Shown piece by piece: positions 2,963-63,318 of a stretch of DNA of 64,000 nucleotides (position 1 is its first letter; each line of letters opens with the position of its first letter). Below the pieces are notes generated by a model. That model was not told the DNA's origin. It saw only the letters and a program-made list of their open reading frames with translations, and did no database searches. The DNA is from Nitrososphaeria archaeon. Lineage in GTDB: Archaea; Thermoproteota; Nitrososphaeria; JACIWG01. The DNA lies in contig JBEKIG010000011.1 of the NCBI GenBank assembly GCA_050011875.1, forward strand, positions 64,001 through 128,000, in the 5' to 3' direction. Made by a program: the position numbers and the translations under genes.

Positions 2963-3781
2963 TCAAGCTTTCTGAGCCAACCTCCATACAGCCATTTGTT
3001 CCACCCTTCTGTATTGAATCTTCCTTTCCGTATCCAATGATGAGCGCACTTTTTCTATTATCTTTTAGAGTACTTCATCTGGAATGTCAAGGCTATATCT
3101 GAAAGCACGCTTCTCGAAAAAAGACAATCTTTCGTCAATGGTCGTCTCAATCAGCTCGTCCTGAATTGTGATAAGCTCAGTTGGCGGGACAGCTGCCAAA
3201 AACTCGCTCTCTTTTCTGCGCCATTCACCTGCACGCCTCGGTAAAGCGTACCCCATCTCCGCCGAGACATGTTCAAAGATCTGCCTCATCACACTGTTAC
3301 CGCTGCTGTCGTTTGCGAGTGCGTCATCGCGCTTGCTGACCAGAGCGACTACCTCCTTCTTTACAACACCAACAATCTTCCCGAAAACCTCTGCAGGGTT
3401 CTCAAATATTTGAAGCACATGAGCCAAAAAAGCCGTATCAAATGACTTCTCTTTTATTGGCAAATAATTCGCATCTGCCAGAATAAGTTCCATGACTCCC
3501 TTCTCCTTCGCCTTCAGAAGCATATCTTTTGAGACGTCCAGCCCTACAATCTCAAAGCCCCTATCCTGAAGTGGCTTGGCAACGCGGCCGGTGCCCACGC
3601 CTACCTCTATGAGGCTGCTACAACCGTCTCTCAGGAGGATATTTTTGATCGTGTTCAAAGCTACTTCCTTTAGCGGTTCTCTCGTCTCGTCATAGACCTG
3701 CGATATTTTATCAAACTGCGTAGCAGTGTTAACGGTTTGACTCATAAAATCGGTTTCTTTTTCAGATTTAGGGGTCTCCAT
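2963..3781 (-). pseudogene. Class I SAM-dependent methyltransferase with probable premature TAA
   Basis: EVGVGTG, GLDVS, ADANYLP motifs. After TAA 3065-3067 the frame stays open for 33 codons (KIIEKVRSSLD...MAVWRLAQKA) to TGA 2963. Confidence 0.7.
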
Positions 3782-50696: not shown

Positions 50697-51309
50697 GAAT
50701 TACTTAAGATTTGCTGAAATAGAGGTTACATCCACATCCATTTTCATCACCTGATAGAATATAATGATTAGTTCAGGTCTTAAGACTTTAGCGCGCTGCA
50801 TTTTAGGGGCAGTTTTTAGAATAATCCAGGATTGCATTAAGGCCCCCGTTGATCAGGGAAACCATTCAAACAATGGATGTTGGGATCATCCACTTTTTCA
50901 TTTTCGCACAGGCCATTGCTTCAGGCGTTTTGTACAGCCAAACGGCGCTCGCGCGCGCTTCGCTACTTTGGAATGTACTGCTGGAAAAATGTCAATAAGA
51001 AACTCTCGTTTGACCCAGCCACAAAGCCTCAGACGTATCCTTACAACGAGAAGAACTACTATGCAAATGCATCCAACAACCTGCACCAGTGGAAAAAACA
51101 CGGAGACTGTTTTGTTTCGACATATTCTTTCTATATATTATATGGATGTTAAAGTAGACTTAAGGTTTTAATCTTTTATTCAGATATACCTATTTTGGAT
51201 AAACAAGATAGAACATTGAATTTTCCTCAAATTCGAAACAAGATTAAATCAGCCACTAGCTTGGGATTGAAGTTATTAATTAGGAGTAATTATTTTGGTT
51301 GGTCCCATT

Positions 51310-51738
51310 TTATAGTTCACTTTTTTCAACAGCTTTTGTAATCTGGTCTCTTAATGCGTCTCGGACATTTCGAAATACCTTTAGAATTTCTTCTTCAGTG
51401 CCGACAACTTCTGATGGATCCTGAAAATTCCAATAAATAAATCTTTTAGCTCCTGGAAAGTGAGGGCACATCTCTTTTGATTCGTCACATACTGTAACCA
51501 CTACCTCGATGCCTTTTCCAATGAACTCAATGAAGGATTTAGCTTTGTTATCTAAGATGTCTATCCCGATTTCAGCCATGACTTTAATGGCGTATGGATT
51601 AACTTTTGTCGGAGTAAGACCCGCACTATAGGCCACAAATCTATCCCCAAACAGATGGTTTAGTAGACCTTCCGCCATCTGAGACCTAGCAGAATTATGA
51701 ACACAAAGGAAGAGAACCTTTCTTTTAACAGGTGGCAT
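51310..51738 (-). CDS. arsC: Arsenate reductase (LMW-PTP fold)
   Basis: LFLCVHNSARSQMAEG, VTVCD...CPHFPG, DPS, FRNVRD. Confidence 0.92.
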   Translation of the reverse strand: MPPVKRKVLFLCVHNSARSQMAEGLLNHLFGDRFVAYSAGLTPTKVNPYAIKVMAEIGIDILDNKAKSFIEFIGKGIEVVVTVCDESKEMCPHFPGAKRFIYWNFQDPSEVVGTEEEILKVFRNVRDALRDQITKAVEKSEL

Positions 51739-51752
51739 AAAGATTGACTCTT

Positions 51753-52076
51753 CTAAATTATCTGCTCAATAGCATGTCCCGAAAGACTTTCGGTCACTTC
51801 AGGTGACACAGTATCAATTATATTGAACACCCTCCTGTCTGTAATCGAATAAAATCTCCGAGTCCCATCCTTTCTATCCTTTAGCAGTCCAGAGTCTTTT
51901 AGAATCTTCAGGTGGCGTGAAACTATAGGCTGAGGCATTTTAATATATGGGATTATCTCGCATACACATTTCTCTCCATTTCTCAAATACTCAATAATTT
52001 TAAGCCTGATAGGATCAGAAAGGGCATAAAATATTTTAGCCCTAAATCTGTCCAAACCATCCTTCTGCATTGGCAT
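51753..52076 (-). CDS. arsR: ArsR/SmtB regulator
   Basis: ALSDPIRL, EKCVCEI, SRHLKIL. Confidence 0.92.
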   Translation of the reverse strand: MPMQKDGLDRFRAKIFYALSDPIRLKIIEYLRNGEKCVCEIIPYIKMPQPIVSRHLKILKDSGLLKDRKDGTRRFYSITDRRVFNIIDTVSPEVTESLSGHAIEQII

Positions 52077-52091
52077 ACATATAGTGAATTA

Positions 52092-52115
52092 ATCACAATA
52101 TTTAAATATTGTGAT
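52092..52115. promoter_or_regulatory. Perfect 24-bp palindrome, likely ArsR operator
   Basis: ATCACAATATTTAAATATTGTGAT between divergent arsR and acr3, centred on a TATA-like TTTAAA. Confidence 0.8.
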
Positions 52116-52278
52116 AGTTACGGTCTGAATACGGTGCATAATGAGAGAGGCATAACTGTTGCAGTATTTGGTCCTGAACCCCCTTGTGCACCACCTACAT
52201 GGTTATTGCTTGGGCAGGTCGCGTATTCTTTGGGTTACTGTACGGTCTTTTAGGTGGTTCTCCATAAGGTGAATTCTT

Positions 52279-53232
52279 TTGGAAAAAGATGAAAAAAAGA
52301 AGCTATCTTTTCTCAGTCGATTTCTCACGCTCTGGATATTCTTGGCCATGATACTAGGTGTTGGCCTAGGATATGTCTTCCCAAAGATCTCTGAAATAAT
52401 AGGTTCAGTAAGTGTTGGAACTACTTCAATTCCTATCGCAGTTGGGCTGATCTGGATGATGTTCCCTCCCCTAGCAAAGGTCAGATACGAGGAACTGGGG
52501 AAGGTTGTTACAGCCAAAGGCTCGAAGAAGATGCTTTCAACTTCGCTGATTTTAAATTGGCTAATTGGACCTCTTTTAATGTTCTCATTGGCATGGATAT
52601 TTTTGGCAAATTATCCAGCTTTCAGAAATGGAATAATTCTCGTAGGTTTGGCAAGGTGCATCGCCATGGTCATCGTCTGGAACGACTTGGCTGGAGGGGA
52701 CAGCGAGTGGGCTGCGATACTTGTTGCCTTGAACTCCATCTTCCAGGAGTCTGTAGCGATATACTTGGGGATACCGTTCTTCGGCGGCATGTTGGCAAGA
52801 TACTACTTTCTGAAGACGAAGGGTAGGGAATGGTACGACCATAAACTGATGCCGAAGCTGAGCCCGACTTCTTTGTTCGCACTTCTTTTCACGATAGTGG
52901 TCATGTTCTCACTTAAGGGAGAATATATCGTGACACTACCACTTGATGTTGTGAGGATAGCGATACCATTGATAGCCTATTTCATTACAATGTTTCTAAT
53001 ATCATTCATCTTAGGTTACTACTTGAAGCTAAACTACAAAAGGACTACTTCACTTGCCTTCACTGCAGCAAGTAATAATTTCGAATTAGCTATTGCTGTA
53101 GCAGTCGCAGTTTTTAGTTTATCCTCACAAGAAGCTTTTGCAACAGTGATAGGGCCCTTGATAGAAGTGCCTGTCATGATAGGCTTGGTGAATGTAGCTA
53201 TCTGGGCAAAAAGACGTGTATTTTCTGAATAA
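52279..53232 (+). CDS. acr3: Acr3 arsenite efflux pump with apparent internal in-frame deletion
   Basis: [46 protein letters not shown] joins directly to ESVAIYLG. Confidence 0.9.
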
Positions 53233-53485
53233 CAGACCCATTTTTTAAGGCCCCTAAGACAATACAATATACTTAAAAATGGAGGAGGAAATCAGTTGGA
53301 TAGAACATTTATGGAGACTCATAGAGACTCTAAGAAAGCTGAATGCAATACAATATGTAACGCTTAAGCATAAATAAAATTAGGTATCTGCACTTAATTA
53401 TGGTCGGAAACCACCGGGCCCGCACCCAATTCTTCTCTGTTCATTATCTACCAGTAAATTAATGCTGAAATCCCACCCATAGCAC

Positions 53486-53823
53486 TATAATTTAATTTCA
53501 TCAACATACTCTATGTTCAACTCTTTTCTGACTAAAACTCGATAATATCTTTCCATTCCATATCTGAACTTTTCTTTAAACTAAAGCACTATCGAATTCT
53601 CATCTTCTGCGAATTCAAAGCAATCTGCAAATATTCTATCAATCTGATCGATGATACCCTTTGATTTAGATGGAAATATCTCCTTTATCTTTATAGCATA
53701 TCCACCAGATCGCACATTAACCTTAATGTTAGAAGCTTTATCATAACTTTCCATCAGATCGTTTACCAATAATTTAAGTCGCATCTCACTGTCTTTTGAG
53801 AAATTTGTGATATCGATTCGTTC
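53486..53823 (-). pseudogene. C-terminal remnant of a type II(G)-like restriction-modification methyltransferase
   Basis: PSKSKGIIDQIDRIFADCFEF.EDE...*FKEKFRYG resembles the SKPIIDEID..LA.HYGF..EE...YD.KYRMG tail of Eco57I-like MTases; internal TAG. Confidence 0.6.
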
Positions 53824-54046
53824 AGTCCTCTCATAAATTAACTAAGAAAGACTTTCTATCTTTAACGGGACAAAAACGGTAGACCAGTTAATAGAATCGT
53901 AAAACGTATTTAGATCTGCTTGAACACTCCACGTAAAAATTCGAGAAACGGGAATGCTTTCTTCACATCTGAATTTGCCCGCATCTATCTATCATTCAAC
54001 AAACTTTACTGAATTGGTTAATGGCATAGCTGAACAAAATAATAGT

Positions 54047-54280
54047 TTGAGCCAGAAAATTCTAAGGTTATTAAATCTGGCTCAAGCAAAAAAAATCGGA
54101 AACGCTAACTCCAAACATTCCACTTGCTGGCTCAGACAGATCCCTCGGTACAATATTTAACATCAACACGCTCCCATGCAGAACGCATTTAAATTGAGCC
54201 AACGGGAAATAGTTAACGTTAGCGTTTTGTTTTAAAACGTGTTGAGCCAAACCAAATTTAGATAATTATTTTTTGGCTCA
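54047..54280. repeat. Cluster of six TGAGCCA heptamers, including two inverted pairs
   Basis: + strand at 54048, 54195, 54243; - strand at 54078, 54128, 54274; variant TGAGCCT at 54367. Confidence 0.85.
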
Positions 54281-55056
54281 CACTAAAATATCATTAAATA
54301 TCTTTGATATGGATCAGTAAACAGTCGCAGCGCTAATGAAACCCATAAAGCTGTTGCTGGCCAAGTTGAGCCTGAAACCTATTAAGTCCGTGCGGACACA
54401 CCTAATTTACATACTTAAAAACAAAAATTAACGTACTGATTATATTCATTGACATGGTTAACTTGTCGTTGAAGATCTTATTTGGTTACCTGATTAATCT
54501 AATAATAGGAAAGTGTTTCTTGAATACCAATTGCAATAAGATACCACTTATGATGAAGTAATGGCAGACTGTAGGAGATGCCATAAAGAGGAATATAGAA
54601 AAGTTAAGTAACTTTTAAAAAATTAAGTTACATTACGTCACACAAAAGAATGTTTTGTAATATAGTAAAATCAATGACAAACAATATCTTTTGACACCAT
54701 GCCTATTCTTATCAGAACTGTCAAGAAGCGCATATACTTTAGTTCTCTTCTGCCTTTTCCTCTCGGACAGCACCTCTGTTATTTAAAATCTATTGTATAT
54801 CACTATTTTTTAGATATAGAAATATATTTGTTAGTACCAAAAGGACACTTATGTCCTTTTTTGCAGGATATAACTTCAAATTATCCTGATCATTTGTCAA
54901 ATAAAAATAATGAGTGGGGGAACTTCATAGCGATAATGTTTAGTTCGAGGTTTAATGATACCTAAGGCAGGACACTTAACATTCGAGCAGGATTGGATTT
55001 TGGGCACAAAGTTAACATCAAGTTTTTGGGGGTTTGTGCTCATGCCCAGAAAACCA

Positions 55057-57531
55057 TCAAAACTCAAGGTCAACTTGTCTGAGTTCTTCGATTATCCTTT
55101 TCACGCCTTTGTTGTTTACTGCAGCTTCCTTTAACCGTTTCTCGTTTAGATCTTCCTTTTCTTCAACGTCCACGAATGATGACATAGTTTCCTGTTCTTC
55201 TATGATCCTCCCCCTTTCACTCGCCTGCGCCACTTCAACCTTTTTCCCTATCAGCGAGAAGATGCTTTCTATTTCGTCAGGTAACACAGCGGTAGGGACT
55301 TCTAGTGCGCGGTTATAATTCTTCACAGGGAACATACTGTTAAGTTTGTTCAGCAGGTGCTCGGCAAGCTTCTTTGCGCCCCCTTCCATTCGCAGCATGC
55401 TATCTATTTCGACACGTTTCTTCGCTAAGTATTCAAGACTAATTCCATGTGAGGAGAAATAAGCCTCCCACTTGGGATTCATGCGATTATATATGCTTTT
55501 TATAGTTCTACTGACATCTACCTGCGCCTTTTGTGAAAGTGCCTCCTCAACATCGCTAAGTGTGAAACCGAATTCTTTGATCATCTTTGGGTCAACTCCA
55601 ATCCGCTGGACAGCTTGTGTAATCTCCTTAGCCTTCATCGAAATCAGGATACCTGGCGCATCGTAATCGGTCAGTATGGCGATGCCTGCACCGCTTTCTG
55701 AAGCTCCTGAAGCCACCCTGTTGGAGTACTCCTGCAGGAATCCCCGTGAGTTGATGATGCCGATGCCGTATAGTTCCAAAAAGGGTGAGACAGCCTCGGC
55801 TACGCCCTCCTTTTCGATGATCAAGATGACGACACCCTTCTTTATCAGGCTATCGATCTGCTTGAAGGAGATGGGGTAATGGACCCCAAGAAAGAAGAAC
55901 TGTGACCTTTCAGAGGCGATGATCCCAAGCTCATCACGCGAAACACCCAGCCTTATACACTCGCTAGAAATCGCACTTGTGATATACTTTCTATCAGCTT
56001 CGACGCCGTTCTCCCGGAATATTGGCTGAAGGTCATACCAGACTGAACTCTGCGTTTTGCGATCAGTCTCCAGAAGAGTAGGATCCCGTTCGACCGCCTG
56101 CTTTCTTTCGCACAAGTAGTTTCGCAGGATACCGATTTGCGGGACGGATGAATTCGTCCCCTTAAGGCGCGCCATCTTACCCTTAAACCCCTTGAAATAT
56201 TTCGCCATGAAATCTTCCAGACCATCAACATACTCCTCGGCATCGAATCTGTTCTTTCCTATCCCCTGCCAAGCTGGGAAAGGTGTTATTACGTGAACCA
56301 CCAACACCCCTTGTTCAACATGGTACTCATCGAGTGGGCCGTAAATCCCGTGCCAACCCGCGTCGTCTTTGTTTGGGCGTACACGACTAAAATAGCAATC
56401 CGCAAACGGATTATCTAGCGTAGGGGTACCGTTGACTCCAGTAATTATTTCCGTGTCACCATCATGTTTAATGCCGAAAGCGAATTCAACCACATAAGGG
56501 ATTGTCCTCCCTTCGGTTGATATAGAATCCGTCTCAATCGCATATCTGAACGTGTTCGGGTAGATGTCGTAGAGGTCTATCAACCCCTTTTTTAATGCCT
56601 TCCTGCCGATCGCCCCAAGGGAGGACGGCGAAGTCGGTGGGCTTACAGAATGAAAAAGGTTATAGATTTCTTTGATTATGTTTTCATCGTTGACAGTAAG
56701 TTGGCCATCTATCGGAAACCCGAACAGCTCCCCAAACTCCCCCATTGACATCCCCTCACTTGCGGCAGTGACCACTAAATCACGGATGGCATTATAATCG
56801 TACCACGACGCGTTTGTATGGCCGCTGTACAACCGAGTGCAACCCCCCCTTGGCGCAATTTCTTCCTCCCCGTTGAACCAGAATTCCACATTTGGATTAA
56901 AAAGGGCGATTTTCCTAACAATTTCCAGAAGCTTGTCTTCTTCGTCCTCCGAAAGCGGCGGCAAGTTTGAGGTAACTGTCGTTCGGCGCTTAACGCCCTC
57001 CCCAACCTTTACAACCTCCGGTGTAATTGAATTTTGTGAAACGCCTCTCCAGTAAATTTCAAACTTGCCCTTTCCGGTTTCAATTGTAAGCGACTTAAAA
57101 TCCGTTGGCTCCAACTTCTCGAATGCAAGGGCATAAGGGATGCCTACGACATACTTCAGCCCACCGCCAAGCGCGCCGCGCTTTGTTAAAAGCACCCACT
57201 TTTTTGTACTTGACATCAGCTTCGGGTCTACGGCACGCTTTATTTCTTCAATGTTGAAACTGTGGCTATGAGGCGAAGTCGGGTTAGAGACTGAAATAAA
57301 CGTGCGACCACCTTCAACCTTAATTTCAATCAAAACTAAACCTTTTGCTTCGTCTAAAGCGTTATCCAGAAGTTCCTTCGCCACAATCGCTGGCAGATCA
57401 TCACGGGTTACACCCAGATGGTTAAGGATTGAATTTAGCCTCACAAATTCCAATGTGCGCGGCGCTGATAACATAGGCCCAGACTTGTCATCGCTTCCTG
57501 ACAAGCGTTTGACTTTGATTTTTTTCGACAA
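55057..57531 (-). CDS. Fused type IIB topoisomerase (Topo VI B+A single chain; Topo VIII-like)
   Basis: GHKL KELLDNALD and RGALGGGLK; transducer PYVVEFAFG...GVNGTP...NPF; candidate catalytic Tyr in SVWYDLQP; TOPRIM IIEKEG, SRGF, LTDYDAPG. Confidence 0.8.
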   Translation of the reverse strand: MSKKIKVKRLSGSDDKSGPMLSAPRTLEFVRLNSILNHLGVTRDDLPAIVAKELLDNALDEAKGLVLIEIKVEGGRTFISVSNPTSPHSHSFNIEEIKRAVDPKLMSSTKKWVLLTKRGALGGGLKYVVGIPYALAFEKLEPTDFKSLTIETGKGKFEIYWRGVSQNSITPEVVKVGEGVKRRTTVTSNLPPLSEDEEDKLLEIVRKIALFNPNVEFWFNGEEEIAPRGGCTRLYSGHTNASWYDYNAIRDLVVTAASEGMSMGEFGELFGFPIDGQLTVNDENIIKEIYNLFHSVSPPTSPSSLGAIGRKALKKGLIDLYDIYPNTFRYAIETDSISTEGRTIPYVVEFAFGIKHDGDTEIITGVNGTPTLDNPFADCYFSRVRPNKDDAGWHGIYGPLDEYHVEQGVLVVHVITPFPAWQGIGKNRFDAEEYVDGLEDFMAKYFKGFKGKMARLKGTNSSVPQIGILRNYLCERKQAVERDPTLLETDRKTQSSVWYDLQPIFRENGVEADRKYITSAISSECIRLGVSRDELGIIASERSQFFFLGVHYPISFKQIDSLIKKGVVILIIEKEGVAEAVSPFLELYGIGIINSRGFLQEYSNRVASGASESGAGIAILTDYDAPGILISMKAKEITQAVQRIGVDPKMIKEFGFTLSDVEEALSQKAQVDVSRTIKSIYNRMNPKWEAYFSSHGISLEYLAKKRVEIDSMLRMEGGAKKLAEHLLNKLNSMFPVKNYNRALEVPTAVLPDEIESIFSLIGKKVEVAQASERGRIIEEQETMSSFVDVEEKEDLNEKRLKEAAVNNKGVKRIIEELRQVDLEF

Positions 57532-57598
57532 ATTTATATCATCATATTATGTATATATTGTCCGGGAAATGAAATTTACAGGGTTAGGTGGACAGAAA

Positions 57599-58519
57599 AT
57601 GTCCTCAAAAAATTCCATCATGGGAAAGATAGTAGACTCTTTAAAGCAAGGTTGTCAGAGTCGGGAAGATGTGATGAAGATAATAAGTGGAAATATACCA
57701 AGTTTGTCCGCCGAAACTCTTAGGAAAAGATGTGGACGCTATATAACAACTCTAACGGCATTAGGCCTAATCGAGGAAAGAGGGGGCAAATACTGCTGGT
57801 TTACGTATGAAAATATTTTTGAATACCATGAGGATTACGAAGCAAAGGTAAAACATTCCCGTGACCTGATACCGGCTCTAGAAAGTATAGCTGGAATTGT
57901 CAGAGGCAAATATTCACTGGACGTGAATATAGAGCGTGCTTTTCATATGAATCAAGACATGCTTAAAACTTATGCCAAAGAACATTTACGACATTATCCA
58001 GAAATTTGGAAAATATTTGAGAATTACGAAGCAAAAAGAAAAGAGGCAGAAAAGAGGATCGAAGCGTTTAACGATGACCTTAAACGTAAATTAAACAGCA
58101 CTTTAAATCAAAAGTCAAAGTGGGCCAAGGGTGGAATAAGGTTAACCGACAACAAAGACATACCAAGCATACCCGATCTGATATACGGTTACATCATGAG
58201 CGAACAGGCCGCAGACTCTGTCAACATTAAATGTGAGACAGGGGAAATATCGTTCAGTGGGTACCTAGTTGCGAGGGGAAATAACCCTAAACATCTCAAA
58301 GAATTTCTTAAAAAAGAAATCTCAGACAGGTCAAATATTCAGAAAGTTGACGCAATCAAAAGATCTTCCAAGGAGTCCCTTAAAATCCAGGAAACAATAA
58401 GACCTAAGGTAGAAGAACTTGCTATGAAAATAGCGTGGGGAGAACCCTTACTGGGTGAGTGTACAGGATGCCCGAAAGGTTATTTTGTGAAAAAGCAGCA
58501 AGCTTCTGTAAAACCATAG
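57599..58519 (+). CDS. Hypothetical protein: N-terminal wHTH, coiled coil, C-terminal CxxC
   Basis: Start at ATG 57599 after AGGTGG; YITTLTALGLIEERGGKY; terminal GECTGCP. Confidence 0.7.
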   Translation: MSSKNSIMGKIVDSLKQGCQSREDVMKIISGNIPSLSAETLRKRCGRYITTLTALGLIEERGGKYCWFTYENIFEYHEDYEAKVKHSRDLIPALESIAGIVRGKYSLDVNIERAFHMNQDMLKTYAKEHLRHYPEIWKIFENYEAKRKEAEKRIEAFNDDLKRKLNSTLNQKSKWAKGGIRLTDNKDIPSIPDLIYGYIMSEQAADSVNIKCETGEISFSGYLVARGNNPKHLKEFLKKEISDRSNIQKVDAIKRSSKESLKIQETIRPKVEELAMKIAWGEPLLGECTGCPKGYFVKKQQASVKP

Positions 58520-58913
58520 TTTTCATTGAGGTTTCTAGCGCGAAATATAAATCCTTTGTCAAGTTGCCATCAATGATAAAATAGCTCTAGAAGCTTTGGA
58601 TAAAGTTATTCCAAACATAAAAAAATGATAGATTAGACAGAGATTTTAGTTTGGGATAAATTAAATATCGAGATCTAACATAAACCTATCTTGACAAACA
58701 ATATCCCTTCAAGGATAAGCGGATGCAACTTGTCAATTTATTAAAAAAGTCTCTGCAAACTAATTCTTTATCTATTGGAAAGCATAATTCAGCCAGTGTC
58801 AACAGTTGGGCAAAATGATTTCTTTAAGGCCCCTTTTTCTTATGCCGTAGGCTTCAAAGATACCTGACCATTATTCTACCCGTTCCGGTAATCTGTGATT
58901 TACACGGGTTTTT

Positions 58914-59303
58914 TTAAAACATCCAGTCCTGGATTTTCAGCAGGCCAGGCCTCGCAACATCAGCCTTTCCGTCTTCGTCAACTATTATAAGCCCTACAGG
59001 GAGCTTTATGGCACTTATTACCGGCTCGAGCTTGCTTAAGAAGGGGTAGTCGTGCGGAGCTGCAATATAAGTCGGAACTTTGTTCCAGACACAATTCTCA
59101 AGGCAGTGGCCTAGCTTCGTATAATATTCCTCCGAGTCTTCATCACATAAAACCTGAATATGACAGGATTGCTTATAGTTAGTACTATAGCTGTCTTCAA
59201 TATCGTAGACCCCTATTTCTCCTCGATCAGCCCTGACAACTTTGTTGGGGAATAAATTGTTGAACAGCTTTGAAACTGCCTGTGAAATCTCTTCTTCACG
59301 CAT
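58914..59303 (-). CDS. Hypothetical protein, possible degenerate PD-(D/E)xK fold
   Basis: YDIE...HIQV...KLGHCL...TYIAAP...VGLIIV pattern. Confidence 0.55.
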   Translation of the reverse strand: MREEEISQAVSKLFNNLFPNKVVRADRGEIGVYDIEDSYSTNYKQSCHIQVLCDEDSEEYYTKLGHCLENCVWNKVPTYIAAPHDYPFLSKLEPVISAIKLPVGLIIVDEDGKADVARPGLLKIQDWMF

Positions 59304-59465
59304 GTTAAGTCACCCTAACAACACCATAATACAGGAGGAAACAAGATAAAACCATTGCACATTAATAGCTTAGCAGGTATTTAATCTTTTATCAGCCTTT
59401 AGGGTGAAAAAAATTGGATTAACGCAAAAAAATGTAATAATAAGAAAAAAAGTGGTTGGAAATCG

Positions 59466-60920
59466 CTATCTCTGCAGCGTCTTAACAAGTTCCTTCTTGT
59501 GGCTGTATATCTTCATGCTCAGGGGCATCTGCCCGATTGCGAAGTGTGTCGCACACCCAAAGCAGGGGTCGTAAGCCCTAAAAGCCATCTCCACTTTATT
59601 TAAAATCCCCTGATCCGCCACGCCTCCGTGAATCAAGCCCTTAGCAGCATCCCTTATAGACATGCATATCGCTGGATAATTGTTCGTTGTGGCCACTATC
59701 ATGTTAACATCCTTGATCAGCGCATCCTTGTCTAGAACGTAGTGATGGAACAATGTTCCTCTTGCCGCTTCAACGACGCCCACGCCTTCGCCTGGTTCCC
59801 CCGGTTTGTTCCTTACGCTCTTGCTTGTAATCTCCGGGTCCCTGCTCAGCTCCAGCGCTCTCTCGGTTGCGTATAAAAGCTCGATCAATCTCGCCCAATG
59901 GAAGACTAATGTTCCGTGCACGGGCTTGCATCCAAAGGTCTTGTACATCTCCTCATACTCGGCCTGAGCTAAAGGCGTTGCCATACCATTTGACGCATTA
60001 AGTCGACCGAGAGGCCCAACGCGGTAGATCCCACTGCCTTCTCCGCAGGTCAAGCCCTTCCAGCCCACCTTCTTAAGGTACGGGAATTTCGCGTAGGTCC
60101 ATTGATCAACGTGTTCGCCGACATTCGTTAAGTAATCCTCAGGCTCAAACTTCAAGAATTCATTACCTTTCGGGTCGACAACCCTGATCCTTCCATCATA
60201 GAAGTTGACCTTATTGTTCTCGTCAACCGTCCCCATGTAGTATGTCCTCGTCGTGTAGGCGTCGCTCTTAATCATGTCTACATACTCGCTGTTCCCAAGG
60301 ACAACATCGTGGAACAGCTTCAGCGTGAACTTTGCAAACTCCAGGGATGAAGCAGCCATCTTTTCGATTTCAGCCCTCTTTTCTTCACTTAAGGGCTTGG
60401 ATATTCCTCCAGGTAGACCGCAGACAGGGTGGGTTGCCTTCCCGCCTAAAATCTCGGTTATCTTCTGCCCATATGCCCTGTGCTTAATAACCTCCTTTGC
60501 AACGTCCATGCCGACCTTCTCGATCACCCCCAGTATGTTTCTCTTGCCCGGTGGCGCGTCAGGGCCAACAATAAAGTCTGGGCCTCCGAGGTAGTAGAAA
60601 TGCAGGATATGATCGTAAATAATGTAACCGGAATACATGAGTTCTCTGAGCTTCTTGGCTGCAGGAGGGGGCTCAACGTTGAACGCAGCATCCAAAGCTT
60701 TCGTCGCTGCTATGTGATGGGCTGTTGGGCAGACTCCGCATATTCTAGAAGTCAGAATCGGCATGAGCTCAGCCCTTCTTCCGACACAGAACTGCTCAAA
60801 TCCCCTGAGCTCCGGAACCTTCAAGTAGGCGTCCTCCACTTCGCCTGCATCGTTGAGGAATATCGAAATGTTCCCGTGACCTTCAAGCCTTGTTATAGGG
60901 TCTATAACCACTTCCTTCAT
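59466..60920 (-). CDS. mvhA: [NiFe] hydrogenase large subunit, group 3c
   Basis: TRLEGHG, RICGVCPTAH, EAARG.L.H, RAYDPCFGCATH. Confidence 0.95.
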   Translation of the reverse strand: MKEVVIDPITRLEGHGNISIFLNDAGEVEDAYLKVPELRGFEQFCVGRRAELMPILTSRICGVCPTAHHIAATKALDAAFNVEPPPAAKKLRELMYSGYIIYDHILHFYYLGGPDFIVGPDAPPGKRNILGVIEKVGMDVAKEVIKHRAYGQKITEILGGKATHPVCGLPGGISKPLSEEKRAEIEKMAASSLEFAKFTLKLFHDVVLGNSEYVDMIKSDAYTTRTYYMGTVDENNKVNFYDGRIRVVDPKGNEFLKFEPEDYLTNVGEHVDQWTYAKFPYLKKVGWKGLTCGEGSGIYRVGPLGRLNASNGMATPLAQAEYEEMYKTFGCKPVHGTLVFHWARLIELLYATERALELSRDPEITSKSVRNKPGEPGEGVGVVEAARGTLFHHYVLDKDALIKDVNMIVATTNNYPAICMSIRDAAKGLIHGGVADQGILNKVEMAFRAYDPCFGCATHFAIGQMPLSMKIYSHKKELVKTLQR

Positions 60921-61903
60921 TCCTTAACCACCTTTCTCCTCAATATCGATGCCGGCAGAGAGTACATGTAAAATGTGCCAACAGGGTCCTTGATCTGGCT
61001 CATGAGCTTATCAACGTCTTCCTGAGTCAGGTGCTCTCTTTCATCCTCTAAGCCGAGAATGGACGCTACAGCACTGATCATGGCCGAACCCTGCTCCGGT
61101 GAATTTGGAGGTGGACCACCACATCCCGTACAAGGCATGTCAACGGATAGGCATTGAGCCCCACATCCGCTGCGGGTTCCAGGTCCCATGCAGATGATCC
61201 CCTGCTCGAGCAGACACTTCTCCGGTTCAGGAACTTTTTCGTAAACACGATAGATCCTTGAAATATTCTTGCTCTCCTTCTTCCTTGGGCACTCGTCGCA
61301 TACGGACTTAAGAGGTGCGAGGACCGAACCCTTAGGCGGCAACTGCCCTTTCGCTATGGCATCGAGAGCGTCTGATATTAGCTTGACTGGAGGTGGGCAA
61401 CCGGGCAAGTAATAGTCCACTTCAACGGTCTGGCCCAGAGTCCTGACAGTGTTATATAACTTTGGAAGGCTGAGCACTCCTTCATTCACAACAGTTCGAG
61501 TTTGTGGGACAACTCCGTCAAGATTTAGAGTAGATTTATTCTCCAAATAGACTTTATTTAAGATATCTTTGCGTTCATATAGATTCGCCAGTCCAGGTAC
61601 GCATCCTTCTTGGGCGCAGGAGCCGAAAGCCACGAGCGTCTTAGACTTCTTCCTCAAGAGCTCAGCCATGTGTTTTTGCTCTTCGGTTCTCACTGAACCG
61701 TTGAAGAAGCAGATGTCAACGTATTTGTCTGGCATCGCTTCAACATCACTGTACTTGACGTCTATTGCGACAGGCCAGAAGACTATATCTGCCATCGCCA
61801 CTACATCAAGTATCTTCTCGTTTAAGTCGAGCACCGCAATTTCGCATCCACCGCAGCTGGCAGCCCAGTAGAAGGCCACCTTCAGTTTCTCGTCGGCCAT
61901 CAC
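60917..61903 (-). CDS. mvhG: [NiFe] hydrogenase small subunit
   Basis: ASCGGC, FGSCA, LPGCPP, CDECPR, CTGCGG. Confidence 0.95.
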   Translation of the reverse strand: MMADEKLKVAFYWAASCGGCEIAVLDLNEKILDVVAMADIVFWPVAIDVKYSDVEAMPDKYVDICFFNGSVRTEEQKHMAELLRKKSKTLVAFGSCAQEGCVPGLANLYERKDILNKVYLENKSTLNLDGVVPQTRTVVNEGVLSLPKLYNTVRTLGQTVEVDYYLPGCPPPVKLISDALDAIAKGQLPPKGSVLAPLKSVCDECPRKKESKNISRIYRVYEKVPEPEKCLLEQGIICMGPGTRSGCGAQCLSVDMPCTGCGGPPPNSPEQGSAMISAVASILGLEDEREHLTQEDVDKLMSQIKDPVGTFYMYSLPASILRRKVVKE

Positions 61904-62790
61904 TTATCAGCTTGACCTATATCGCTGAGTATTTTAGACGCGTTAACCCTCAAATCGCTTAAAGCGAGCTCTTCAGGTGTCAAGCCCATCGCTAAACCAA
62001 GCAGCTGGGGATAGTGCAGCACCGGAATACCATAAACTTCGCTGAACATTTTCTCTATGCGCACTTCGTTCGTGTCGTACATTATGTGACAGAAGGGGCA
62101 GACGGTTATCAGGGCCTGAGCACCCACGGCCTTTACGTGGCTCAACTTGTCTCTTGCGAGTTGTAATGCGATTTTGTCGTTCACACCCACGCTCGGCGCG
62201 CCACAGCATTCTGTTTCATCCATGTAGTCCAAGCACGTTGCTCCCGTTGCTTCAATCAAAGACTTGAGCACCATCGGATTCTCCGGATCATCAAACCCGA
62301 CATACTCCTTGGGTCTAACGATGTGGCAGCCGTTATGCTCTGCAACCTTCAACATCGTAAGCGGCTTAACTACCGAATTCTTTATCTTCTCCAAGCCTAC
62401 GTCTTCGATCAAGACCTGCATAAGATGTTTCGCTTCTACCGTTCCATTAAATTCAAGCCCAGCCTCATTCAAGTGTCTATTAATTTCCTCTCGCAACCCT
62501 CCATCTTCCTTCAGCATCCTGCCAACTTTCTTGAGCGTTCCAGCGCAGCCTGGGCATAAAGTTATTATGTTCAGACCCTTCTGCTCAGCTAACGCCAGGT
62601 TTCTCGCAGCCAGTATAAGCATCATTTCGTGGCTAACGGGGTCCAGTGGTAGACCGCAGCAGTTGAACTCGGGCATTTCAACCAGTTCAACACCTAACTT
62701 TGTAAGGGTCTTCCTAGCTGAAATTTCGAAGGCTGCAACCCTATACGGAATCGCGCATCCTAGGAACATAAGGTACTTGTTCTCTGCCAT
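61900..62790 (-). CDS. hdrB: Heterodisulfide reductase subunit B
   Basis: FLGC, CCG twice, CPGC, HNGCH, CPFCH. Confidence 0.95.
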   Translation of the reverse strand: MAENKYLMFLGCAIPYRVAAFEISARKTLTKLGVELVEMPEFNCCGLPLDPVSHEMMLILAARNLALAEQKGLNIITLCPGCAGTLKKVGRMLKEDGGLREEINRHLNEAGLEFNGTVEAKHLMQVLIEDVGLEKIKNSVVKPLTMLKVAEHNGCHIVRPKEYVGFDDPENPMVLKSLIEATGATCLDYMDETECCGAPSVGVNDKIALQLARDKLSHVKAVGAQALITVCPFCHIMYDTNEVRIEKMFSEVYGIPVLHYPQLLGLAMGLTPEELALSDLRVNASKILSDIGQADK

Positions 62791-62793
62791 CTC

Positions 62794-63318
62794 CTAAACC
62801 ACTTTCTTCTCCATATGTTTGAGAAAACCTACACCGTTAAGCGACTTGCGAATGCTCTCAGGGTTGCCTTTTGGCAACGGGGGCAGCCCTAGAGACTCCC
62901 GCTTTTTCAACCGCAGTTCTGGGATCCTGTAAGCGTAACCTGACTCTAGCACGCTTGCACACTGTTCCTTGAACACTTGGGGTACAACCCCCTCCTCTAC
63001 AGCCAAGTTTCTCAGTACGCGTATAACGCTTGCGACTTCGACGTCCTGTGGGCAGCGGTCTGTGCACGTAAAGCATGAGGCGCACAACCATAGTGTATCG
63101 CTCTTTAACACCCTGTACTTCAATCCAAGTTGCGCCATACGTATTATCTGCCCAGGCCTGTAGATATCACTAAATCTTGCGACCGGACAGTCTGAAGTGC
63201 ATGTTCCACACTGGAAACAGCGCATCAGCTTTTCTCCTCCGTGCATCCTGGAGATTTCATACTTGAACTTGGGATCGATCTCAGATGCCTTAACAACCTT
63301 CTTTTCTGTTTCGTTCAT
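62794..63318 (-). CDS. hdrC: Heterodisulfide reductase subunit C
   Basis: CFQCGTCTSDCP, WLCASCFTCTDRCPQ. Confidence 0.95.
   Translation of the reverse strand: MNETEKKVVKASEIDPKFKYEISRMHGGEKLMRCFQCGTCTSDCPVARFSDIYRPGQIIRMAQLGLKYRVLKSDTLWLCASCFTCTDRCPQDVEVASVIRVLRNLAVEEGVVPQVFKEQCASVLESGYAYRIPELRLKKRESLGLPPLPKGNPESIRKSLNGVGFLKHMEKKVV

Follow-up and report, generated by a model that had tools for sequence, protein, structure and literature searches.

A predicted single-chain type IIB topoisomerase-like protein that departs from the Topo VIII signatures, in a probably accessory cassette of a Nitrososphaeria archaeon

The window analysed here, a 64,000-nucleotide stretch of contig JBEKIG010000011.1 from a Nitrososphaeria archaeon, carries a gene at 55057-57531 (minus strand) whose product is predicted by structural models to be a fused type IIB topoisomerase-like protein, with a Topo VI-B-like half followed by a Top6A/Spo11-like half. 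We refer to this protein as the enzyme. The reading we favour, as probably though by no means surely correct, is that it is an accessory single-chain enzyme of a divergent clade of the Topo VIII superfamily, derived from mobile genetic elements of Nitrososphaeria, which cleaves DNA in a manner uncoupled from ATP. The original prediction, made from the sequence alone, was of a single-chain Topo VI B plus A fusion resembling Topo VIII, and this holds by fold, by tblastn against plasmids and by the motifs shared with two Topo VIII proteins from the literature.

The longest open reading frame (ORF) is a single open frame of 824 residues from a TTG start codon to the stop codon at 55057-55059. The two closest relatives (86% and 82% identical) are homologous in both DNA and protein from Met20 onward, and thus the true start is probably the ATG at 57472-57474, giving a product of 805 residues. 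The 67-bp spacing to a divergent gene that had been reported is correct for the longest ORF, but becomes 124 bp from this likely start. The chain is divided into a GHKL/Bergerat ATPase-like domain that holds the N, G1 and G2 boxes and has a fold match (residues ~20-235, 56827-57474), H2TH-like helices plus a transducer, aligned with residues 14-457 of the Top6B chain 2zbk_B (residues ~236-462, 56146-56826), a 5Y-CAP/winged-helix domain (residues ~463-545, 55897-56145), a Toprim domain (residues ~546-735, 55327-55896) and a C-terminal extension of ~90 residues that forms three long helices absent from the aligned Top6A chains (residues ~736-824, 55060-55326), all on the minus strand. One 824-residue protein with GHKL, transducer, tyrosine and Toprim motifs had been predicted, and both the motifs and the fold matches confirm it.

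No match to the enzyme was found in the Pfam, PHROGs or PADLOC libraries, and NCBIfam and the PDB sequences gave just sub-threshold MutL matches over the N box. A profile of the C-terminal family found no relevant chain among the PDB sequences. The initial database search returned 19 proteins, a few of which bear precomputed GHKL or Topo-VIb-transducer Pfam labels; the source name of one reads 'topoisomerase VI subunit B / ribonuclease M5'. Eleven of these (P0002-P0012), most of them full-length at 840-880 residues, were aligned with the enzyme. The full-length chain was modelled with AlphaFold2 from a 12-row alignment (predicted local distance difference test (pLDDT) 75.4, predicted template modelling score (pTM) 0.52), and residues 464-824 were modelled separately from a 25-row alignment (pLDDT 90.9). 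Foldseek placed Topo VI-B chains on top for the full-length model (1mx0_A, E 7.5e-18). In VIA-align, with 48,161 representative solved structures as the comparison set, the N-terminal half matched the Top6B chain 2zbk_B at Z 23.1 (root-mean-square deviation 5.3, 377 aligned, model residues 26-455) and 2q2e_B at Z 22.7, with MutL lower at Z 19.6; by these models Topo VI-B is the best structural match for residues 22-462. Residues 461-734 of the full model matched the Top6A chain 1d3y_B (Z 13.1, 254 aligned) and Spo11 (8uru_A, Z 10.5). The 464-824 model matched Top6A of three species (Z 14.9, 14.3 and 14.1), MksG (8b7f_B, Z 14.0) and Spo11 (Z 10.5), and the following row had Z 8.4. Foldseek ranks 1-12 for this model were all Top6A, Spo11, MksG or JetD (7til_B at rank 11), after which E jumped from 7e-3 to 0.11. 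The AlphaFold comparison with Topo VI and JetD recovered the Topo VI-B and Top6A folds, and the likeness to JetD and MksG (Wadjet and MksBEFG, respectively) lies in the Top6A-like Toprim fold only. A MutL/MORC-type GHKL protein was considered as a separate candidate and ruled out by the Top6B score of 23.1 versus 19.6 for MutL, together with the Top6A-like C-terminal half.

The residues expected to act in cleavage were located in a motif alignment of the enzyme, 19 relatives, two published Topo VIII proteins (those of H. jeotgali plasmid 5 and Pseudomonas sp. Leaf58 pBASL58, both taken from the plasmid matches) and a paralogue encoded on contig C4 of the source genome. Conservation was counted, over the rows covering each site, in the 160 database proteins closest to the family profile (P0001-P0012 and P0020-P0167, the short matches P0013-P0019 being left out). 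Tyr499 (56035-56037), within TQSSVWY499DLQP, falls on the RQL[YF]Y..RP of Topo VIII and is present in 144/144 rows. The Toprim motifs IEKEG and LTDYDAPG hold E573 (55813-55815; 146/146), K574 (146/146), D622 (140/140), D624 (138/139) and G627 (139/139), the DxD and Gly lying at 55651-55668. When the C-terminal family was aligned by hhalign with 15 Top6A sequences from 21 loci (probability 92.2%, E 5.9e-7), the second Tyr of the Top6A 'RDLYY' lined up with Y499, the Toprim Glu with E573 and the DxD with D622/D624, in agreement with the alignment to the two Topo VIII proteins. A T2BI-like box, R706-V-E708-I-D710-S-M (55402-55416), lies inside the Toprim domain. Compared with the Topo VIII box, RVEIDSM has four identical and three similar positions; the references read RVEINAF and RVELNAM, and over 128-129 family rows the box has R in 112 and K in 17, E708 in 129/129, D in 107 and N in 18, and S in 70 and A in 48.

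The B-type half retains its N box, its G2 box and a candidate switch lysine. The N box KELLDNALD (57352-57375) has N57 in 83/83 rows, E53 in 77/83 and D60 in 80/83, and in the G2 box RGALGGGL (57160-57177; G119-A-L-G122-G-G124, GxxGxG) G119 and G122 are each present in 84/84. K426 (56254-56256), found in 120/120 rows, aligns with a Lys in both Topo VIII references and is the candidate transducer switch lysine.

Three sequence signatures of Topo VIII are nevertheless missing. The first is the G1 box. The N, G1 (DxGxG) and G2 boxes are given as conserved in 93% of Topo VIII proteins in the published survey (PMC7671362). The degenerate G1 box (VSNPTSP) of the original prediction was borne out: the enzyme reads VSNPTSPHS with Asn83 (57283-57285) where relatives carry the Asp of DNGxG and, set as S-N83-P-T-S-P-H against the DDGPG or DNGPG of the references, it lacks the GxG. 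In GHKL ATPases the G1 Asp contacts adenine, and its change to Asn abolishes binding in gyrase B and Hsp90. Among 84 family rows the G1 site is Asn in 44, Asp in 32 and another residue in 8. At the fifth G2 position Asn-type rows carry Asp in 33/43 cases and Asp-type rows carry Asn in 28/32, an apparent Asp/Asn swap between residues 83 and 123 (57163-57165) which, as related rows share labels by descent, is a pattern and not a test. It may reflect a rebuilt nucleotide pocket or simply clade history. The enzyme's own subclade has Gly at the fifth G2 position.

The other two departures flank the catalytic tyrosine. According to the same survey, an Arg or His precedes the Tyr by four residues in 82/82 Topo VIII sequences (RxxY/FY, RxxMY or HxxY/FY; PMC7671362). 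The enzyme has Ser495 (56047-56049) where Topo VI and Topo VIII have Arg, and 137 family rows carry S in 67, Q in 23, R in 18, D in 15, N in 11 and other residues in 3. In the Topo VI of M. mazei, R102 and E342 of Top6A are described as an 'electrostatic clasp' that keeps Y106 off the Toprim acidic residues, and the E342Q change as giving a far more break-prone enzyme (PMC13040014, a 2026 cryo-electron microscopy study). The family retains the clasp Glu (E708) but is mostly without the clasp Arg. Three residues beyond the Tyr, an Arg is called 'conserved in every' Topo VIII member (PMC7671362); the enzyme and its two closest relatives have Gln502, followed by Pro503, and Arg is found in 115/144 family rows.

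A search of 1.84 billion cluster representatives with the profile built from the 12-row alignment gave 3,970 matches at E<=1e-3, 2,355 at 1e-10 and 872 clusters at 1e-30. Among the matches listed (the best 150), all score at least 263 bits; with the same profile the published Topo VIII pair reaches 165 and 105 bits, and the C4 paralogue 182 bits. tblastn against 72,556 plasmids matched only three records (21-24% identity over 83-86% of the query), and all three plasmids are named as Topo VIII carriers by Takahashi et al. (PMC7671362). A FastTree was built from 60 rows that cover the N box, the Tyr and the T2BI box, with P0001 (the enzyme's own cluster) dropped, and was rooted on the long-branched source-genome paralogue. 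In this tree, which contains long branches and whose topology is provisional, one 10-row clade (support 100) contains both Topo VIII references and is itself part of a 30-row clade (support 99). The enzyme's 4-row clade (support 100) lies outside the 30-row clade, and a 21-row Asn-type clade branches earlier. Fused forms dominate the family and genuine two-gene forms were found at two loci (L035 and L036); both arrangements are described for Topo VIII (PMC7671362). A scan of viral contigs gave 27 pattern matches but 0 relatives of the enzyme, and the titles of all 13 genome loci with relatives read Nitrososphaeria or Nitrososphaerales archaeon.

Like Topo VIII (Gadelle et al. 2014; Takahashi et al. 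2019/2020), the enzyme combines GHKL, H2TH, transducer, 5Y-CAP and Toprim parts in one chain, keeps the catalytic Tyr, the switch Lys, the N and G2 boxes and E...DxDxxG, has in RVEIDSM a box with partial resemblance to RVELNAM, and has relatives tied to plasmid-like or integrated elements and to primases. Unlike Topo VIII, it has a degenerate G1, Ser for Arg/His at -4 and Gln for Arg at +3, and its host is of the Nitrososphaeria type, whereas the survey reports 82 Topo VIII sequences of which four are archaeal, all from Euryarchaeota (PMC7671362). The enzyme clearly belongs to the Topo VIII superfamily while failing three of its signatures and, in the provisional tree, falling outside the reference clade. 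With Topo VI (Top6A2B2) it shares both folds, the Tyr, the Toprim acidic residues, the T2BI Glu and an equivalent of the transducer Lys; unlike Topo VI it is fused, has no Pfam Topo VI match and is missing both the G1 box and the clasp Arg that would pair with Glu.

The gene is probably accessory and derived from a mobile element, travelling as a small cassette, and not housekeeping. Canonical Top6B and Top6A genes lie in tandem on contig C7 of the source genome, which makes the enzyme an extra and rules out a housekeeping Topo VI. At E<=1e-30 its family occurs in 4 of 301 genomes sampled from the class, a count that includes the source; of the other genomes in the same taxonomic family, 1 of 9 has it. 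In a second genome of the genus (G001) the DNA of window 58673-63000 is syntenic at 95-96% identity and a match to 53411-54021 lies 1.8 kb from that block; in the window the two blocks are 4.65 kb apart. The G001 copy of the enzyme gene is on another contig. Its DNA is 87% identical and the homology is confined to window 54964-57477, including a 3' flank (54964-55056) that travels with the gene. Over 807 codons the two copies have nonsynonymous and synonymous divergences (dN and dS) of 0.075 and 0.431, a ratio of 0.17 (0.12-0.35 by domain, with 0.12 for GHKL), and the enzyme gene is under purifying selection. The cassette of ~4 kb, made up of the enzyme gene and the divergent gene encoding a CxxC protein, sits in a variable hot spot among arsenic-resistance, hydrogenase and heterodisulfide-reductase genes. 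Four metagenome runs with this stretch are labelled peat, and the sequencing runs listed for it include no RNA run.

The divergent gene (57599-58519, plus strand) encodes a 306-residue protein of no known family with an invariant C-terminal G-x-C288-x-x-C291-P. It had been described as a winged helix-turn-helix/CxxC gene. The gene and C288-x-x-C291 are real, but the winged helix is weak: it has behind it a sub-threshold Pfam nSTAND_NTPase4 match (E 0.039) and ESM Atlas feature hits of 0.78, from a feature search that was uninformative (best score 0.81), and the N-terminal part is possibly a winged helix. A partner-family profile found no relevant chain among the PDB sequences, and close homologues are on short contigs only (73-76% identity, one at 36%). 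The genes divergent from the enzyme in G001 (370 residues) and at metagenome locus L028 (367 residues) encode distant homologues of this partner. BLASTP aligns their N-terminal 141 residues at 26% identity (E 2e-7), they share the G-x-C-x-x-C-P, and a partner-family hidden Markov model, which has the G001 protein in its seed, recovers the two at 1e-105 and 4e-81. A partner homologue therefore stands divergently beside the enzyme in 3/3 close loci (the window; L024/L005, which are G001; and L028). The partner is far more diverged (~26% identity) than the enzyme (86%), and homology with the sister copies breaks exactly at the enzyme's ATG, the edge of an AT-rich intergenic region (57475-57598) with TATA-like runs. 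Separately, a 94-bp stretch of G001 (C19:607338-607431, L024 13339-13432) is 95% identical to window 58463-58556 and corresponds to 37 bp plus the 3' end of the partner gene of the window type. The G001 enzyme gene, 6.3 kb away, is paired with the other partner type, which suggests that partner alleles have been exchanged.

The surroundings of relatives were scanned through 21 selected proteins from the 13 genome loci plus 94 from metagenome loci. Neighbours include PrimPol/D5_N/DUF5906 primase-helicases (L014, L015, L034, L043), tyrosine integrases (L016, L039, L052 and, weakly, L012), restriction-modification parts (L031, L037, L044, L051), SIR2-like genes (L012, L033) and Y-family polymerase-DUF72 fusions (L011, L015); an Eco57I-like enzyme is encoded beside the G001 copy. 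At two soil metagenome loci a PrimPol-D5_N-DUF5906 gene lies directly upstream on the same strand (L034 302-2866, L043 254-2863), and on the H. jeotgali plasmid a P4-family primase gene comes directly after that for Topo VIII (L003 9105-10895). The presence of a primase-helicase beside Topo VIII-like genes in unrelated contexts hints at a replication module. The mobile-element module originally proposed for the window is consistent with the primase-helicases and integrases of relatives and with the shifted locus in G001; the cassette itself, however, has no replication or integration gene.

In the mechanism that we favour, the enzyme would work as a putative homodimer in which Tyr499 acts together with the E573/D622/D624 (plus E708) of the opposite chain, which would bind Mg2+, to cut both strands through 5'-phosphotyrosyl links, with resealing possible. 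The Topo VI-B-like half would be kept as a dimerising gate, its nucleotide control weakened or lost since the adenine-contacting Asp is Asn83 and the GxG loop is gone. In Topo VI the -4 Arg pairs with Glu to hold the Tyr away from the DNA, and its absence may leave a cleavage-prone set-point. From these two changes we predict an ATP-uncoupled, cleavage-prone enzyme whose expected outcome would be ATP-independent relaxation or double-strand breakage, not tightly gated strand passage. The divergent CxxC protein would most likely be a regulator or a DNA-targeting partner. As precedent, one bacterial Topo VIII is reported to relax DNA without ATP and another to linearise plasmids (PMC4117785).

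Several observations weigh against this interpretation. The main one is that no region of the protein is as constrained as its GHKL part, and that the switch lysine and the N and G2 boxes are undamaged; some nucleotide use may therefore remain. The full-length model is of moderate quality, and the activity, the dimer and the ATP independence of the clade are inferred. The Asp found in the G2 box of the wider Asn-type group hints at a rebuilt, not a dead, pocket. Gln at +3 in the enzyme and its two closest relatives may change the DNA chemistry unpredictably. The window cassette is without integrase, primase or any other hallmark gene of mobile elements, and no empty site was recovered from the sequences searched. 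Finally, the partner is kept in the closest subclade only, other subclades having other recurrent neighbours.

Unlikely, though foremost among the alternatives, is a conventional ATP-dependent enzyme of the Topo VIII type that relaxes or decatenates mobile-element DNA and for which the odd G1 box and absent Arg would be harmless. In its favour, the switch lysine, the N box and the GxxGxG of the G2 box are all preserved, the strong constraint on GHKL (ratio 0.12) fits, P. polymyxa Topo VIII is reported to be ATP-dependent (PMC4117785), and relatives adjoin primase-helicases. This explanation has to accommodate the replacement of both the G1 Asp by Asn and the GxG loop, in a subclade that also lacks the G2 Asp found in other Asn-type members.

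A defence role for the enzyme is possible but is also rated as unlikely, behind the conventional Topo VIII. The original prediction raised an undescribed defence module. In such a module the CxxC protein would sense or target foreign DNA and the enzyme would destroy it by double-strand breaks, by analogy with the Top6A-like nucleases JetD and MksG. For the Toprim part MksG scores close to the top (Z 14.0) and JetD is at Foldseek rank 11, a clasp-less design with a degenerate ATP box would be apt for a nuclease that kills, the locus is a variable hot spot, and the partner evolves fast relative to the enzyme. Restriction-modification parts, SIR2-like or HerA-like genes adjoin some relatives (L005/L024, L012, L031, L033, L037, L044, L051), but restriction-modification and SIR2 genes are also usual cargo of mobile elements, and several relatives belong to elements that themselves encode a primase-helicase and an integrase, which puts them with the mobile DNA in such a conflict. 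JetD-type nucleases are not known to need a catalytic Tyr. Unlike JetD and MksG, the enzyme has a full B-type half and an invariant Tyr, both needless for a plain Toprim nuclease, and no SMC-like JetABC or MksBEF genes are nearby. No PADLOC model, JetD included, matches the enzyme or its partner. The defence proposal thus found no direct support.

We also entertain, as the most novel of the readings and an unlikely one, that the clade is a natural 'unclasped', ATP-uncoupled prokaryotic counterpart of the meiotic break machinery Spo11/TOPOVIBL. It would make programmed double-strand breaks at sites chosen by the fast-evolving partner, either moving the cassette or destroying rivals. If true, the enzyme would be a tyrosine-linked homing or defence nuclease of a new kind and not a topoisomerase. 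As in Spo11/TOPOVIBL, a Top6A-type cutter is joined to a B-type partner with degenerate ATP boxes (as described in PMC7671362). Unlike the enzyme, however, Spo11 is eukaryotic, multi-subunit and distantly related, and it is described as keeping the clasp ion pair (PMC13040014). We take the resemblance as a functional analogy for ATP-uncoupled breaks, implying no homology beyond the superfamily.

Very unlikely is a self-mobilising two-gene cassette, in which the break-and-rejoin chemistry of the enzyme, directed by the CxxC protein, would shift the cassette between sites. The cassette does occupy different loci in genomes of the same genus with no integrase nearby. An exact 14-nt direct repeat, TGACAAACAATATC, with its left copy at 54675-54688 and its right copy at 58692-58705 (both plus strand), brackets 4,017 bp around the cassette and is present in a single copy at the G001 site; the right copy lies 19 nt inside the block shared with G001. 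The chance expectation is 0.04 matches in the window, and at least two were seen in 1 of 100 shuffles. The repeat is a possible attachment (att) site or target duplication. The flank to the left of the left repeat has no match in G001, however, and no extended similarity was found around the repeat or with the sister site, so there is no true empty site. The inverted-repeat search around the cassette gave no terminal inverted repeats, and in the four metagenome runs no contig joins across the cassette, the listed joints having sides of 21-24 nt and coming from other sequences. Homology between the copies is limited to the enzyme gene and does not extend to a whole element. No type IIB enzyme is known to act as a recombinase.

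Two further observations have been counted on the side of self-mobilisation. Contig C2 of the source genome carries an isolated 83-bp remnant (3082-3164) that is 96% identical to window 54998-55080 and consists of the last 24 bp of the enzyme gene plus 59 bp of its 3' flank; it could be what is left of a further copy since lost, or a short end sequence that is itself mobile. One public Nitrososphaerales metagenome-assembled genome contributes 8 of the 13 genome loci (L006, L008, L011, L012, L013, L015, L016, L017), each split into 2-5 frames with none a single uninterrupted frame, and several adjoin D5-type primase-helicases, integrases or a DUF72-Y-family polymerase fusion. These eight loci could be a multi-copy element family or assembly errors, and the broken frames could be due to decay or to sequencing errors.

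Least probable of all is that the gene has lost its function and is decaying as the remains of an integrated element: the lack of mobile-element genes around the enzyme, the adjoining ~1.8 kb of non-coding, repeat-rich DNA, the lost signature residues and the fragmented copies of that one genome would fit, but the frame is intact in the window, G001 and L028, dN/dS is 0.17 at a dS of 0.43 and all the catalytic residues are kept.

The remaining neighbours had been proposed to form one module of orphan genes with the enzyme. Only the CxxC gene fits, with its co-occurrence in 3/3 close loci. The supposed methyltransferase remnant was not recovered: 0/23 stop-to-stop frames in 53233-55134 match a methyltransferase family (E<=1), no motif of the type [DNS]PP[YFWH] or FxGxG occurs in the six frames of 53200-59400, and tblastn with the restriction-modification enzyme that flanks the sister copy gave no match. 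The possible PD-(D/E)xK gene, a 129-residue orphan ORF (58914-59303, minus strand) upstream of the hydrogenase genes, is supported as a lead since its ESM Atlas model resembles Mrr_cat restriction-endonuclease-fold clusters (TM score 0.72, 118 aligned), and it has database homologues of 98% and 72% identity. It belongs to the conserved backbone and not to the enzyme module; its orthologue lies at the same place in the G001 syntenic block, unlinked to the G001 enzyme.

Window 53355-54286 is a patchwork of dispersed short repeats (43-299 bp, 75-94% identity) with 27 further blastn matches on 16 contigs of the source genome and no detected coding potential. Three of those matches (C4:55645-55710, 55757-55807 and 56523-56596) are near a tRNA-Arg gene and the C4 paralogue. 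The arsR/arsC-like/ACR3 cluster at 51304-53424 has a second copy 100 kb upstream (C11:14567-15974, 71-85% identical). The arsenic-resistance cluster also lies in a variable region, because in G001 its copies sit on two other contigs.

The source genome encodes a second fused type IIB-like protein, the C4 paralogue used above as root (G000:C4:58401-60581; L026 10402-12582, plus strand; 726 residues), with a tRNA-Arg(TCT) gene 2.7 kb upstream. Its N-terminal half matches the B-type profile of the enzyme family (E 3.8e-44) and its C-terminal half is a Mini-A, with a phrog_6247 match at 2.5e-60, the T2BI box WEVDAL and the Tyr motif RQVFY; plasmid genes that carry the annotation Topo Mini-A are 35% identical to it. 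It was matched at E<=1e-15 in 21 of the 301 class genomes but at full length in just the source genome (G000) and G001; the other 19, a count that includes the unpublished G282, match the Mini-A part alone. Takahashi et al. report that they found no B-type partner for Mini-A (PMC7671362). The enzyme itself is like Mini-A in having CAP and Toprim domains, the catalytic Tyr and a T2BI-type box with E-x-D. Unlike Mini-A, a group of viral or proviral Top6A-like proteins of ~300 residues with no B part and the box xWELDAL, it has 805-824 residues, a B-type half, RVEIDSM and no PHROG match.

A search of the open-access full-text literature returned no Nitrososphaeria or Thaumarchaeota Topo VIII-like genes and no G1-degenerate, Arg-less clade, and in their archaeal passages two later reviews (PMC8185306; PMC11894792, 2024) cite only the survey of Takahashi et al. 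By the profile search the radiation, most of it metagenomic, is much larger than that published, and the published Topo VIII proteins look like one sub-branch in our tree. The Asp that contacts ATP is replaced in about half of the closest members, and most are without the Arg of the R-E clasp. If active, these proteins would be natural experiments on how ATP, gate closure and cleavage are coupled in type IIB enzymes, and on how Spo11-like break-makers arise from topoisomerases. The source genome gains a third and a fourth type IIB gene, which raises the question of what benefit such genes bring to mobile elements.

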